Virus record (IMG/VR): IMGVR_UViG_2534681764_000020
Location: 1 to 4,324 of that record
DNA: 4,324 nt
Source: a virus
Taxonomy: Duplodnaviria > Heunggongvirae > Uroviricota > Caudoviricetes
Reading direction: 5' to 3' (one strand)
Below the pieces are notes generated by a model. The model saw nothing but the letters and a program-made list of their open reading frames with translations, did no database searches and was not told where the DNA came from. This document shows positions 1 to 4,324 of this stretch, in pieces. The position numbers and the translations under genes are program-made. The number at the start of each line of letters is the position of its first letter. Within the stretch, counting starts at the first letter, position 1.

Positions 1-573
1 ATGTTTTGCGAAGAAAAAGTAGCTCAAATGGCTGCATACCTACTTCTTAAGCGAGGTGGGCGCATGGCATATCTGAAATTGATGAAGTTGCTCTATCTGT
101 CTAACCGCCAGTCGATTTTGAAGCATGGCAGGATGATCGGCGAAGATAGCCTTTACTCTATGAAATTTGGACCAGTCATGTCGAATACGCTGAACTTGAT
201 TCGCGGTAAGGCTGAAGGCATTGGTGACTACTGGTACAACTTGATAGAGACGAACGGGCATAATGTATCGTTGCGTTCAGATCCGAGGGAAATGGATGCA
301 GACGAGGTCTTTGATGAATTGAGTCGTGCAGATATCCGGATTTTAGATGAAATCTATTCTCGGTATGGGCATATGAACCGATTTGATCTCGCAAATATGA
401 CGCATTTAGAAAGCGTTTGTCCAGAGTGGCACGATCCTGGCAATTCTCGTAAGCCTATAGACCTGAAAGAAATGCTGATCAGTGAGGGTAAAAGCGAGGA
501 TGAGGCTAATCGCATAATTGGCAAAATGGAAGAATCTCAGAAACTTAAGGAATTTTCTTTGCAATTATCATGA
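1..573 (+). CDS. Panacea-domain (DUF4065) protein, PanA/SocA/GepA-like putative antitoxin; N-terminus may extend beyond the window
   Basis: The 190-aa ORF contains the segment LKLMKLLYL...GEDSLYSMKFGPVMSNTLNLIRG, which matches my recollection of the conserved Panacea core (LKLQKLLY...W.YGPV). Its stop codon overlaps the start of the next ORF (ATGA at 570-573). The ATG at position 1 coincides with the window edge, so the true start is uncertain. Confidence 0.72.
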   Translation: MFCEEKVAQMAAYLLLKRGGRMAYLKLMKLLYLSNRQSILKHGRMIGEDSLYSMKFGPVMSNTLNLIRGKAEGIGDYWYNLIETNGHNVSLRSDPREMDADEVFDELSRADIRILDEIYSRYGHMNRFDLANMTHLESVCPEWHDPGNSRKPIDLKEMLISEGKSEDEANRIIGKMEESQKLKEFSLQLS

Positions 574-989
574 CGGATTATCAGCCATACAGGAAAGGAA
601 CTGTGCTTGCCCCAACTGGGCCATGCAATCATCTTCATGTGATTTGTAATGATCCTGTTTATTACCCCGTTAACGATTGTTATTGTGTTTTAGTTGTTAA
701 TATTTCTAGTATCAAGGATGGTGTCCCCCACGATCCGTCTTGCGTCTTGAATTCTGGTGATCATCGCTTTATCAAGCATCCAAGTTATGTTGTTTACGCT
801 GAAGCTATAATTTGGCGAGTGGATAACATGGTTAGAAAGCAGCGATCGGGTGAGATTTCTGTTCATGATGATATGCCAGAAGCTACATTCAATAGAATTC
901 TGGACGGTTTTGATATCTCTGATGAAGTTACGCCAAAGAACCTTAAATTTAAAAATAAATATTGCGTATCATCTATTGATGATGAGTAA
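570..989 (+). CDS. hypothetical protein, candidate cognate toxin/effector of the Panacea-domain protein; fold unrecognised
   Basis: 139-aa ORF whose ATG overlaps the upstream stop by 4 bp (ATGA), suggesting translational coupling. There is no nearby Shine-Dalgarno sequence (AAGGAA lies about 18 nt upstream). The N-terminal half is Cys/His-rich (CNHLHVIC, CYC, SC...DH). The DNA looks AT-rich relative to the neighbouring operon. No family recognised from memory. Confidence 0.55.
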   Translation: MTDYQPYRKGTVLAPTGPCNHLHVICNDPVYYPVNDCYCVLVVNISSIKDGVPHDPSCVLNSGDHRFIKHPSYVVYAEAIIWRVDNMVRKQRSGEISVHDDMPEATFNRILDGFDISDEVTPKNLKFKNKYCVSSIDDE

Positions 990-1017
990 ACAACAGGAAT
1001 TGTTTCGGTATAACTTC

Positions 1018-1022
1018 AGGAG
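1018..1022 (+). promoter_or_regulatory. Shine-Dalgarno (AGGAG) for the 57-aa ORF
   Basis: AGGAG lies 6 nt upstream of the ATG at 1029. Confidence 0.6.
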
Positions 1023-1028
1023 TTTTCT

Positions 1029-1202
1029 ATGGAAGATCAAAAAGCAACCAAGCCACAGGTTAAGTTCGACACAATGAAAGCATTCGCAGGTATGGGTGCT
1101 GCTGTTGAAGTTCTGATGAAGGCTGCTCCTAATGCGTTCACTCACGCTACTGTCTCTGGTAAAGAGCAGCAGGGTAAGCTTCGTCGTCGCAAAGCAGCAT
1201 GA
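1029..1202 (+). CDS. small hypothetical protein (57 aa), not in the supplied ORF track
   Basis: Manual translation gives MEDQKATKPQVKFDTMKAFAGMGAAVEVLMKAAPNAFTHATVSGKEQQGKLRRRKAA, ending at TGA 1200-1202. It has a good RBS and is followed within 20 nt by a strong intrinsic terminator. Codon choice (GGT, GCT, CGT, GTT, TTC, CTG, AAA) resembles highly expressed enterobacterial genes. There is a hydrophobic/amphipathic core and a basic C-terminus. Confidence 0.5.
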   Translation: MEDQKATKPQVKFDTMKAFAGMGAAVEVLMKAAPNAFTHATVSGKEQQGKLRRRKAA

Positions 1203-1221
1203 TCATAGCTGGTGCTTTTTG

Positions 1222-1250
1222 AAAACCCGCCTTTAGGCGGGTTTTTTATT
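1222..1250. terminator. Rho-independent terminator at a convergent gene junction, probably bidirectional
   Basis: Perfect 10-bp inverted repeat AAAACCCGCC / GGCGGGTTTT with a 4-nt loop (TTTA), followed by TTTTTTATTT on the plus strand. It lies immediately 3' of both the plus-strand 57-aa ORF and the minus-strand gene ending at 1250. On the minus strand the trailing U-run is weaker (GGGUUUUC then A-rich). Confidence 0.82.
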
Positions 1251-1531
1251 TAGTGATGTTCTTTGCCCTTCTGTTTGCTTGTTCTGACCTGTTCCCACTC
1301 GATACGTCCTTCTTCTCGTCTTTTGTCTATGTATTCCGCAAGATCCTGAATATTGATGCAACGTTTTGCTTTTTGTGATGTGCCGATGCGATATGTTGGA
1401 ACGGGCAACTTACAAGCGTTTGCTTTTGCTTCTGCCGTGGATGGACTCATACCAAAGTACTTTTGGCTAACTGCTGAGAGTTCAATGTTTGGGGTATTGA
1501 ATTCAGCCATCAGTAAAAACAAGGTGTTCAT
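1250..1531 (-). CDS. PrtN/excisionase-like small DNA-binding protein (putative phage Xis or regulator)
   Basis: The ORF track gives 1250..1558, but that start is GTG with no RBS. The in-frame ATG at 1531 is preceded by GGAG with a 6-nt spacer and gives 93 aa. The segment IELSAVSQKYFGMSPSTAEAKANACKLPVPTYRIGTSQKAKRCINIQDLAEYIDKRREEG resembles PrtN/AlpA-type winged-helix proteins as I recall them. It is the last gene of the operon. Starts at 1543 or 1510 remain possible. Confidence 0.5.
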   Translation of the reverse strand: MNTLFLLMAEFNTPNIELSAVSQKYFGMSPSTAEAKANACKLPVPTYRIGTSQKAKRCINIQDLAEYIDKRREEGRIEWEQVRTSKQKGKEHH

Positions 1532-1567
1532 AATTTTCTCCATCAAAACCGGCTGCACCCGGGAAAA

Positions 1568-2140
1568 TCATAATTCTGTGCTGGTGGCAGGAATTAATTT
1601 CTGCCAGATAGCGGAAACATATTTTGCCTGATGACGGGCATCAGCCCGGGCGTTGTGCCGTTCGCCATCGAAAGGCATGTCCATTTTGGGGTCGAATCCG
1701 ATGGAACGCCCAAGCGTAACGATCGTGCGTACATCGTGGTCATTCCAGTATGCCCACGGGCAGATTTGTCCTGCTCGCTCATAAGCTCCACGTAAAATTA
1801 CGTTGTCGAAGGTGGCCCCGTTACCCCAGACTTTTAAATATTTCGTATTGTCTGCGTGCCGGTTAATGAAATGATTTAGTTCTGAGAGAGCATCGCTGAT
1901 CGACAAAGTATCATCAATGCAGATTGCAGCTCGTGCTTCAGGGCTTTGTTTCAACCACCACAGGATGGTATCGCCGTCAGGTGTAGCTCCTTGCTTCATA
2001 GCACTGTCTAGGCTGACAACCGCATAGAATTCTTGTCCGATGTCTCCGGTTTCGGGGGTGAAGAACACTGCGCCAATAGAAACGATCGGCGCATCCTTAT
2101 TTTTCCCCATCGTCTCAAGGTCGATCATTAAGTTGTTCAT
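1568..2140 (-). CDS. DEDDh-family (DnaQ-like) 3'-5' exonuclease, phage-type
   Basis: Motifs read directly from the translation: Exo I MIDLETMG (D, E), Exo II WGNGATFDN (D), Exo III H-NARADA (H...D). The track ORF (1568..2224) is over-extended: the ATG at 2140 is preceded by AGGAGGTG and overlaps the upstream stop as TGATG, giving 190 aa. Confidence 0.85.
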   Translation of the reverse strand: MNNLMIDLETMGKNKDAPIVSIGAVFFTPETGDIGQEFYAVVSLDSAMKQGATPDGDTILWWLKQSPEARAAICIDDTLSISDALSELNHFINRHADNTKYLKVWGNGATFDNVILRGAYERAGQICPWAYWNDHDVRTIVTLGRSIGFDPKMDMPFDGERHNARADARHQAKYVSAIWQKLIPATSTEL

Positions 2141-2421
2141 CACTTCACCTCCTGCGGCGGTTCTTGTATTGGCATCGACTGAGCTATATATAGCGGCTGA
2201 ACATACCAGCCCTTTGATAACCAACTGTCAGCAACGTTTTTACTTCTGGTTATTGCTGGAATACCCAAGCCATTGTCTGAATGCAGCCATGCCACCGGTT
2301 CTGCTTCCAGCGAGGCTAACGCTATTTCATAAGCTCGGCGCTCAATATTGTCTCGCACGTCCAAGCTGCCTATGCGCTCTTTGATTTCTTTAATCAGTTC
2401 TTTGTCGGTAAAAGTGGTCAT
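2140..2421 (-). CDS. hypothetical phage protein (93 aa)
   Basis: ORF with an AAGGAG RBS 6 nt upstream of the ATG at 2421. Its stop overlaps the exonuclease start. No family assigned confidently; contains EPVAW and PLY motifs of the sort seen in prophage proteins of unknown function. Confidence 0.6.
   Translation of the reverse strand: MTTFTDKELIKEIKERIGSLDVRDNIERRAYEIALASLEAEPVAWLHSDNGLGIPAITRSKNVADSWLSKGWYVQPLYIAQSMPIQEPPQEVK
2146..2153 (-). promoter_or_regulatory. Shine-Dalgarno (AGGAGGTG) for the exonuclease gene
   Basis: Reverse complement of 2146-2153 is AGGAGGTG, 5 nt upstream of the ATG at 2140 (minus strand). Confidence 0.65.
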
Positions 2422-2431
2422 GTGTTACTCC

Positions 2432-2695
2432 TTAACCCGCAGTGCTTTCAACTGACGAGGGGAACAAAATCTTTTCATCAAATCCGGCATTCATATCATG
2501 GACAGCAACACACCAATCCATTGACGAACGATTATCAAGAGCCTCCATGATTTCATCCATGCGGCGTAGGTCATACAGGTAAATATTTTTATCGCCAATG
2601 GTGTAAAAACCAATTTTTTTCGGTGATGGACAGCGATCAATAACGTCCTGTAATTCGTTCAACCATGCCTGTTCTTTTTTTGTCAAAGTTGCCAT
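2432..2695 (-). CDS. hypothetical phage protein (88 aa)
   Basis: Trimmed from track ORF 2432..2785 to the internal ATG at 2695 (MATLTKKEQAWLNEL...), which sits 1 nt after the upstream gene's stop and has an AAGGA motif upstream. The longer N-terminal extension would overlap the membrane-protein ORF. Confidence 0.5.
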   Translation of the reverse strand: MATLTKKEQAWLNELQDVIDRCPSPKKIGFYTIGDKNIYLYDLRRMDEIMEALDNRSSMDWCVAVHDMNAGFDEKILFPSSVESTAG

Positions 2696-2696
2696 A

Positions 2697-2915
2697 TCAG
2701 TTTTCCTTATACGGATTAATTTTATTGTGCAGTGTGTTGAACGACGCCCATACCACGTCGTTATACAATTCAATAACTGGCTCAATTATTTTCCCGATTG
2801 CCCAGACAAAAATTAGCGGGGATATCGGTATCATCAACACGATAAACAGAATGAGAAACAGGAATTCTGTCGTTCTACTCTTTCGCGGATATTCTTTTCT
2901 GAATAATGTCGGCAC
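2697..2915 (-). CDS. small single-pass membrane protein (72 aa), probable GTG start
   Basis: A basic N-terminus (RKEYPRKSRTTE) is followed by a roughly 24-residue hydrophobic segment (FLFLILFIVLMIPISPLIFVWAIG), consistent with an N-in transmembrane helix. The start codon at 2915..2913 is GTG, preceded by GGAGAG. AT-rich. There is no in-frame ATG that would keep the TM segment. Confidence 0.5.
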   Translation of the reverse strand: MPTLFRKEYPRKSRTTEFLFLILFIVLMIPISPLIFVWAIGKIIEPVIELYNDVVWASFNTLHNKINPYKEN

Positions 2916-2916
2916 A

Positions 2917-3249
2917 TCACTCTCCTTTGATGCGAATGCCAGCGACGCGTAGTGCGTGTTCTAAGTCAATCAGGCAAAGCCAACTGCCATTTTCTTTAGG
3001 TATCATGACATGTCGCTTATCAGCATTTATTGGGTGCCCATATCGAAGGTCGTAGCGAGTCGGTAATTGAACTTCCCTCGCTTCCAGTTCTGTAATGCGT
3101 TTGTTTTTAGCTTCTAGTTCATCCAGCAGCGCCAGCACAACCTGCGGTGTGACTTTCATACGAAATGCCAGCAATTTTTGTGGTGTGGCTACTATTTTTA
3201 TTGCTTCTGCCGCCTCACGCAGTGCCTGATAGTTAATTTTGGTTGTCAT
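2917..3249 (-). CDS. Ead/Ea22-like family phage protein
   Basis: 110 aa; N-terminal INYQALREAAEA and the central VLALLDELEAKNKRITELEAR coiled-coil segment match my recollection of Ead/Ea22-like prophage proteins. The start overlaps the upstream stop as ATGA, with a GAGGTG RBS. Confidence 0.6.
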   Translation of the reverse strand: MTTKINYQALREAAEAIKIVATPQKLLAFRMKVTPQVVLALLDELEAKNKRITELEAREVQLPTRYDLRYGHPINADKRHVMIPKENGSWLCLIDLEHALRVAGIRIKGE

Positions 3250-4124
3250 GCCACCACCTCTTCGAATTTCAACTCCAATTGATCACCCCAGATTTCACAT
3301 GACTCTGAACACGAGCCGGTATCGAATCGCCTGGCTTGCACCATCGCCTGATACAAATTTCTGTAGTCGCTGTCGGCATACATTCTGGCAATCCCGTCAA
3401 GACTCAGATGACCACGGTACATAACGTCTTTATCTGTCTTTCGGTGACCATCCCGGACGTGTTTACCTGTAACCAGCTCATTAAAAACTCTCATCAGACC
3501 AGGTTCGTCTTTACATGCAAGCCCCAGCTTTTGCGTGGACTTTTTGATGCAGAAAACACAGTTCCCGAGGTGCTCCGGGATTTGCAAATCAAAAGGTTGT
3601 TTATGCCACCACCGGATAACATCCGACTTATCAAAATCAGATAGCTCGGCAAGATACCGGACGCCTGATTTCGGTTTCAGCCTACGAGGTTCGTCTGCAC
3701 GAATACCCAGCCATGTGATGTAATTCCCTCGTCCGAAATGGTCATCGCAGTATTTTGTGAAGGGGGTGAGTTTTAATCTGTCAGTGCAGAACGCGCCGCC
3801 GATGTATGGCGTGCCATATTTTTTTACCATGTCCATAAACGGTTTAAGCACCGGCATTCGCGTCTGAATATCCTTTGGTTCCCATTCCGTATAACCATTT
3901 GGCTGCCCAAGCTCTGGATTTATATCGACCTGCAACACAGTTAGCGGTATGCCCCAGAACTTCACAACCTCCCGAATAAAGCGGTATGTCAGCGGATGTT
4001 CGCAACCGGTATCCATAAAGATGTAGCAGACGTTATTACCAGCCTTTCTTTGTTCTTCCATCAGGTGAACAAGATATGCAGATGTTCTCCCGCCAGAAAA
4101 ACTAACTACATGAGTTATGCACAT
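3246..4124 (-). CDS. phosphoadenosine phosphosulfate (PAPS) reductase family protein, PP-loop ATP pyrophosphatase superfamily
   Basis: 292 aa; an N-terminal PP-loop-like motif VVSFSGGRTS (a variant of SGGxDS), a conserved D-T-G segment and a C-terminal CxxC (CVFC). Its position in a prophage early operon next to an Ea22-like gene is common in enterobacterial prophages (from memory). Confidence 0.8.
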   Translation of the reverse strand: MCITHVVSFSGGRTSAYLVHLMEEQRKAGNNVCYIFMDTGCEHPLTYRFIREVVKFWGIPLTVLQVDINPELGQPNGYTEWEPKDIQTRMPVLKPFMDMVKKYGTPYIGGAFCTDRLKLTPFTKYCDDHFGRGNYITWLGIRADEPRRLKPKSGVRYLAELSDFDKSDVIRWWHKQPFDLQIPEHLGNCVFCIKKSTQKLGLACKDEPGLMRVFNELVTGKHVRDGHRKTDKDVMYRGHLSLDGIARMYADSDYRNLYQAMVQARRFDTGSCSESCEIWGDQLELKFEEVVA

Positions 4125-4321
4125 TTGCGTAATTCCGATAACTCGTTGAAGCGTGCCATAAACATCCCGTAGGCATGGCCCGGTGCCAGTGGAATCACGT
4201 TGAACATCTCTGTTGCCGGGATGCCTTCCAGTACAGGCCAGAAAGAGCCATCATCAAGCCCGAGATCGCGGCGTTCGGTTGCCAGCATGATGAGATCGGC
4301 ATATTTCACGGGTGTACTCAT
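4115..4321 (-). CDS. hypothetical protein (68 aa or longer), start possibly beyond the window edge
   Basis: The ORF overlaps the PAPS-reductase start by 10 nt. The reading frame is still open at the window boundary (codon 4322-4324 is sense), so the ATG at 4321 may be internal. Confidence 0.45.
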   Translation of the reverse strand: MSTPVKYADLIMLATERRDLGLDDGSFWPVLEGIPATEMFNVIPLAPGHAYGMFMARFNELSELRKCA

Positions 4322-4324
4322 AAC

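Follow-up and report, generated by a model that had tools for sequence, protein, structure and literature searches.

Do the two overlapping genes at the left end of a tailed-phage DNA form a toxin–antitoxin (TA) pair, and if so, of which kind? The DNA analysed, called the window throughout, is the whole stretch of 4,324 nucleotides (nt) at positions 1 to 4,324 of the IMG/VR virus record IMGVR_UViG_2534681764_000020 (Caudoviricetes). Three open reading frames (ORF1, ORF2 and ORF3) occupy the plus strand of its positions 1-1250. An earlier, sequence-only reading had described ORF1 as a Panacea-domain antitoxin and the coupled ORF2 as a predicted toxin, carried together as a prophage moron; this description is well supported by the domain, by the pairing at 28/28 loci and by the attL position. 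Window positions 1-989 are here assigned, with good confidence, to a type II pair of the PanAT kind (Panacea antitoxin PanA, toxin PanT), belonging to toxin cluster T6 and carried as cargo by a dusA-integrating lambdoid prophage of Escherichia coli. The assignment is built on domain identity, family membership, fold, conserved pairing and genomic position. The E. coli allele is presumed to be toxic, to act through ribonuclease (RNase) chemistry, to be bound directly by its antitoxin and perhaps to have an anti-phage role.

Identity of the antitoxin

The product of ORF1 (panA) was compared with profile hidden Markov models. It matched PF13274 (SocA_Panacea) with an E-value of 2.2e-19 and 70.9 bits, far above the Pfam gathering cut-off of 25.7, and the Panacea core seen earlier is confirmed. 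The protein is built from a Panacea domain that stands alone (residues 27-137) and a C-terminal extension of about 50 amino acids (aa). The identical RefSeq entry, WP_000458584.1, is named 'Panacea domain-containing protein'. The NCBIfam SocA equivalog model gave 14.4 bits against a cut-off of 190; this far sub-threshold score together with the Panacea match indicates that ORF1 is a PanA protein and not a SocA orthologue. The operator search upstream of panA returned a single 9-nt palindrome overlapping a weak -35-like hexamer, and promoter-like sites there were no commoner than in shuffled sequence. A literature search for the accessions of the window proteins found none.

Membership of the pair in toxin cluster T6

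The neighbourhood survey of DUF4065 by Kurata et al. (2022, PNAS; PMC8832971) defined 88 toxin clusters. The T6 rows in the examined part of Dataset S1 (PMC8832971) include Pantoea septica LMG 5345 with an overlap of -4 and 'Yersiniaceae bacterium 2016Iso4' with toxin WP_101821906.1 and an overlap of -1, besides Pluralibacter gergoviae, Proteus vulgaris, Photorhabdus, Halomonas, Pasteurellaceae and alphaproteobacteria, all the listed entries being in the antitoxin-then-toxin order. A genome scan with the ORF2 alignment recovered two of the strains listed in T6. The P. septica LMG 5345 locus (L008) has a 4-nt overlap, equal to the -4 of its T6 entry, and its toxin is 56% identical to ORF2. The second locus (L007, 1-nt overlap) is that of Chimaeribacter coloradensis 2016-Iso4, whose toxin was found by exact-sequence look-up to be WP_101821906.1. 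ORF2 is 55% identical to this T6-listed protein (E 2e-49), and the proposal of a new PanAT toxin family is therefore given up.

The same cluster contains the Pseudomonas moraviensis pair WP_083354365.1/WP_083201923.1, marked 'TA' (PMC8832971). The P. moraviensis PanT is toxic, is neutralised by its PanA and forms a complex with it in pull-down; it specifically inhibits protein synthesis, as followed by 35S-Met incorporation, and has HHpred similarity to the EndoA/PemK/MazF RNases (PMC8832971). A close stand-in for this pair was found in Pseudomonas phage Sirocco, the PanA of which starts with MIFSEQKVAQ, the ten residues that Kurata et al. restored to P. moraviensis PanA. The two Sirocco genes overlap by 1 nt, the toxin is 47.9% identical to ORF2 and identity is about 48% in both proteins. 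E. coli is represented in the examined part of Dataset S1 by only two pairs, in T1 and T3 (PMC8832971). By sequence comparison, the E. coli allele is a new member of a catalogued and partly validated PanAT family, and not a new toxin family.

RefSeq labels several of the Pasteurellaceae T6 toxins 'terminase', according to the T6 rows of Dataset S1. In a Helicobacter prophage (L032) the T6 pair is found two genes upstream of the gene for the large terminase, a single hypothetical ORF separating them. The 'terminase' label may be an annotation carried over by position.

Conservation of the pairing

The pairing of the two genes was surveyed at 26 genome loci and 4 phage loci, of which two at contig ends could not be assessed. 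A PanA homologue lies directly upstream and ends a few bases from the toxin start in 28/28 assessable loci, which span Gamma-, Beta- and Alphaproteobacteria and four phages, and PF13274 was matched by all 25 of the upstream proteins extracted. The survey of neighbourhoods that the sequence-only reading had proposed as a check thus came out in its favour. The identity of PanA to its window counterpart rises and falls with that of PanT (Spearman 0.83, n=26). The two genes are inherited together on temperate phages.

The ATG of ORF2 (570-572) overlaps the TGA of ORF1 (571-573) in a 4-nt ATGA, so that both the coordinates and the overlap reported earlier for the 139-aa partner are correct, and no Shine-Dalgarno sequence was found close to ATG570. 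The overlap points to panT being translationally coupled to panA. In most related loci the two genes likewise overlap by 4 or 1 nt, as in the T6 rows of Kurata et al. Synonymous and non-synonymous codon differences from Kosakonia number 62 and 20 for PanT and 76 and 34 for PanA; between two E. coli alleles PanT has 2 synonymous differences and 0 non-synonymous ones. The pattern of codon differences is that of purifying selection on both panA and panT.

ORF2 is carried by prophages of several types. A second T6 allele of E. coli (toxin P0044, 52% identical) also lies 3' of a PF13274 gene (L034-L036 3435-4402). Its neighbours, at the border of a different mobile element, are a PAPS_reduct/DUF3440 gene and a gene for an LPD/MuF polyvalent protein of 2791 aa.

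Start codon and relatives of the toxin

The N-terminus MTxYxPYRKGTVLAP is kept in 33 ORF2 homologues, and for this reason ATG570 is taken as the true start and the RefSeq start at GTG603 as too short. The correct start matters for cloning: the annotated toxin of 128 aa (WP_014640052.1; L001 8603-8989) is without 11 conserved residues.

No sequence match for ORF2 was obtained in Pfam, NCBIfam, PADLOC or PDB, and PDB searches with ORF2 alone and with a 73-sequence profile returned nothing meaningful. The sole family match was the uncharacterised phrog_19071. Chance-level matches to ICMT (E 0.05) and to DapC (E 0.002; 17 bits against a cut-off above 500) were dismissed. As far as motifs and sequence go, but no further, the earlier reading was right to find no known toxin family for ORF2; it fails for the predicted fold, which is that of MazF/Kid/CcdB, and for the cluster, which is T6. 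Relatives of ORF2 form 62 clusters at 90% identity, from Enterobacterales, Vibrio and Shewanella. A profile search gave 2737 clusters at 50% identity (E <=0.001), nearly all of about 130 aa. In the 90%-identity cluster of the window toxin there are also PanA proteins of 190 aa and a 'DUF4065 domain-containing protein' of 232 aa; this mixture has the look of an artefact of clustering, in which mis-called ORFs may have formed the bridge.

Predicted fold and conserved residues of the toxin

The structure of ORF2 was modelled with AlphaFold2 on a 34-sequence alignment. The model is a confident one, having a mean predicted local distance difference test score (pLDDT) of 91.1 and a predicted template modelling score (pTM) of 0.85. 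Foldseek comparison with the PDB returned MazF or Kid structures for all of the top 50 matches, at a probability of about 1.0 and template modelling scores of 0.55-0.67 on the target. According to the model, ORF2 is a MazF/Kid/CcdB-fold protein (an SH3-like barrel) with extra C-terminal helices and not a small zinc-binding fold. The prediction runs contrary to the metal-binding fold for which structure prediction had been suggested as a check.

Conservation was scored in 73 diverse representatives of the family. H21 and S/T47 are present in all 73, C58 in 72, D55 in 71, Y76 and G113 in 72 each, and H65 and F67 in 71 each. In the model H21 stands at the start of strand beta-2 and S/T47 at the end of a long strand. 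The catalytic pair of E. coli MazF is R29/T52. Judged from the register of secondary structure, H21 and S/T47 appear to be placed where MazF has these two residues.

Proposed mode of action

By homology to the P. moraviensis T6 toxin, PanT would most likely arrest growth by blocking translation, probably through RNA cleavage, and PanA would most likely neutralise it by direct binding. Direct neutralisation by the domain has been demonstrated for stand-alone Panacea antitoxins in the NetFlax work (PMC10440598). The ATGA coupling would keep toxin synthesis at or below antitoxin synthesis. The two genes (panAT) would be transcribed convergently to xis, with the transcript ending at the shared terminator. 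The likely benefit to the lysogen would be defence against superinfecting phage, stabilisation of the prophage, or both. In the literature no later paper was found in which PanAT of T6 is tested in phage defence, and no T6 role is established there.

Points against the assignment and rival explanations

A number of observations weigh against this account. The evidence for TA activity comes from the T6 homologue and not from the E. coli allele, and the link to the validated WP_083201923.1 runs through shared T6 members and the Sirocco proxy. PF02452 (PemK_toxin) was matched by 0/73 family members. The hhalign comparison of the family profile with a small MazF profile, made of four sequences (MazF/Kid/EndoA/ChpBK), gave no match (probability 0.4%). 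Because the sequence profiles reveal no such link, the MazF connection depends on the fold and on the HHpred statement of Kurata et al. A conserved Arg like the catalytic Arg of MazF is not evident in the family, which has an invariant His instead; the His/Asp/Cys/His set is unlike the MazF catalytic pair, and the chemistry of PanT may therefore differ. CcdB, a gyrase poison, also has the MazF/Kid/CcdB fold. Two phage-borne T1 candidates, from an E. coli MOD1 prophage and Salmonella phage vB_SemP_Emek, are predicted mRNases and were not toxic when assayed in E. coli. No defence model in PADLOC-DB v2 matched ORF1, ORF2 or ORF3 at E <=1.

These observations give room to other explanations, the best surviving of which is that ORF2 is toxic without being an RNase. 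The MazF/CcdB scaffold would then serve to poison gyrase, as CcdB does, or to build a separate site, catalytic or metal-binding, from H21, D55, C58 and H65. This is considered fairly unlikely, as the best fold matches are all MazF/Kid RNases and it is specifically translation, and not replication, that the validated T6 toxin blocks. S/T47 is moreover found in 100% of the members, at a strand end like the catalytic Thr of MazF if the inferred register is right.

It is rather improbable that the pair is a PanAT homologue in which ORF2 is no free-standing growth toxin in E. coli and acts only on a phage cue or target. The non-toxic T1 candidates would fit such a behaviour, as would the presence of ORF2 on prophages of several types and the view of the NetFlax authors that Panacea is a sensor and not a plain neutraliser (PMC10440598). 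T1 is however a different cluster, and the validated T6 member is both toxic and neutralised; tight ATGA coupling and strict co-occurrence are also what is expected if the unneutralised partner is harmful. A further reading holds that T6 PanTs, that of the window included, are not ordinary MazF-type RNases but a re-tooled MazF barrel with a near-invariant His21/Asp55/Cys58/His65 site, metal-dependent or of Cys-His-Asp type, and that the prophage copy is switched on specifically in lysogens by read-through from the dusA promoter at attL as an abortive-infection module. Taken jointly, these proposals are speculative and the combination is doubtful.

That ORF2 founds a toxin family unknown until now, with a small Cys/His zinc-binding fold, is highly improbable. 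Six Cys and six His do occur among its 139 residues, with C58 and H65 conserved, and its sequence has no match in Pfam, NCBIfam or PADLOC. The family is nevertheless already catalogued as PanT T6, and the predicted fold is a MazF-type barrel with helices. Of the motifs described earlier, C-x-C is present (C37-x-C39), and the spacing C-x2-H-x-H-x-C is wrong, the true one being C19-x-H21-x-H23-x2-C26. C19, H23, C26, C37 and C39, which make up most of the Cys/His cluster, vary freely across the 73 representatives, and a metal-binding fold defined by those residues is therefore rejected. It is equally hard to credit that the phage PanA is mainly an anti-defence decoy neutralising host toxins, with ORF2 an unrelated passenger, for although Panacea domains pair with many toxin types, ORF2 homologues lie immediately 3' of the PanA gene in every assessable locus and co-diverge with it, and panA and panT appear to be translationally coupled. 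The T6 PanAT assignment is accordingly retained as the best explanation.

Prophage setting and neighbouring genes

Window positions 1-1260 are identical to the left-hand end of a dusA-inserted prophage (L001), where zur is followed by a DUF2713 gene, the initial 35 dusA codons and then panA. They are also identical to phage SKA5, in which the integrase and a dusA fragment are found just upstream. These identities place the cassette at the attL end of a dusA-integrating lambdoid E. coli prophage. Beyond about position 2140 the genes of the window differ from those of L001 and SKA5, and this divergence next to an identical 1-1260 indicates prophage mosaicism. The pair was found in 208/5426 complete E. 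coli genomes, always on the chromosome and with 206 copies essentially full length. The carriers include avian pathogenic E. coli (APEC) and O103 and O121 strains. The host dusA promoter and the 35 dusA codons that remain at attL (L001 7643-7747) are directed into panA. The cassette might be transcribed from this host promoter only when integrated.

The features of the window are collected in Table 1. The RNA fold of the terminator is a hairpin (1221-1246) followed by a T-run, with a free energy of -23 kcal/mol and a z-score of -3.57, none of 200 shuffled sequences being equally stable. The A-run 5' of the stem and the T-run 3' of it make termination possible on both strands. From its position, the terminator is common to the plus-strand panA-panT-ORF3 unit and the convergent xis operon. 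The strong terminator convergent with the phage operon was thus correctly recognised, xis being on the minus strand; the statement that the cassette ends in it needs amending, as ORF3, which had been overlooked, lies between ORF2 and the terminator. The minus-strand genes for xis, the exonuclease, the Ead/Ea22-like protein and the PAPS-reductase-like protein are, by their annotation, a lambdoid early-left operon.

Table 1. Features located in the 4,324-nt window
Feature	Position	Strand	Description
panA (ORF1)	1-573	+	190 aa; Panacea (DUF4065) antitoxin
panT (ORF2)	570-989	+	139 aa; toxin candidate, PanT cluster T6
ATGA start/stop overlap of panA and panT	570-573	+	read directly from the sequence
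ORF3	1029-1202	+	57 aa; phrog_2741, E 8.4e-36; own AGGAG Shine-Dalgarno at 1018-1022
Intrinsic terminator	1221-1250	both	11-bp GC-rich stem with A-run and T-run flanks; terminator scan
xis, excisionase	1250-1558	-	PF11112, phrog_1300; convergent with the cassette
Rv2179c-like 3'-5' exoribonuclease-domain protein	1568-2224	-	E 4.8e-74
Ead/Ea22-like protein		-	among the genes next after the terminator
PAPS-reductase/PP-loop-like protein	3246-4124	-	292 aa; E 4e-9

ORF3 is probably co-transcribed with panAT. The segment from ORF3 to the terminator is present in 565 E. coli genomes, compared with 208 that have panAT, and ORF3 adjoins xis in phage mEp460 without panAT; for these reasons it is regarded as a conserved backbone gene outside the TA pair. 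Its C-terminus is very basic (RRRKAA) and phrog_2741 has no assigned function. ORF3 was also considered as a small membrane toxin of the T3/T12 kind and rejected, having no clear hydrophobic span and being widespread without panAT. In mEp460 (L033 1784-2317) an unrelated 177-aa gene without Pfam match replaces panAT on the ORF3-xis backbone. This different occupant marks the site from attP(dusA) and the integrase to ORF3 as a variable cargo slot, of which panAT is one occupant; such an arrangement is the classic moron layout put forward in the sequence-only reading.

Comparison with known systems

The P. moraviensis PanAT of T6 resembles the window pair in its gene order, with the stand-alone Panacea antitoxin leading and a toxin of about 130-140 aa following, and in the overlap of the two genes. 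It differs in that its locus was scored 'NotPhage', while the window pair resides in a prophage. MazEF and Kis-Kid (PemIK) have an antitoxin of AbrB type (MazE/PemI), in contrast to the Panacea partner in every locus of the ORF2 family. ORF2 itself is set apart from MazF by the lack of a PF02452 match and of profile similarity, by the invariant His at the inferred place of the catalytic Arg, by the additional conserved D55, C58 and H65 and by about 30 extra C-terminal residues.

The PanAT of E. coli STEC (Shiga toxin-producing E. coli) O31 (T3) and that of Bartonella (T12) are likewise validated pairs with Panacea antitoxins from Enterobacterales/Proteobacteria, but their toxins are small membrane-depolarising peptides unrelated to ORF2. 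The T1 candidates mentioned above share the Panacea-first order, the origin in enterobacterial temperate phages and a predicted mRNase partner, and belong to another toxin cluster. SocA of the SocAB system of Caulobacter crescentus is the founding Panacea-domain antitoxin and shares the domain with ORF1. It differs in being a ClpXP adaptor for SocB, which blocks the DnaN clamp and is unrelated to ORF2.

Significance

The analysis shows that a prophage common in E. coli carries a T6 PanAT pair at its attL end. The mechanism of T6 toxins given in the literature is a prediction by homology, and H21, S/T47, D55, C58 and H65 now constitute a defined set of residues for probing it. Should lysogens gain protection from other phages through the cassette, it would have a bearing on phage therapy directed at avian and Shiga-toxigenic E. 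coli.

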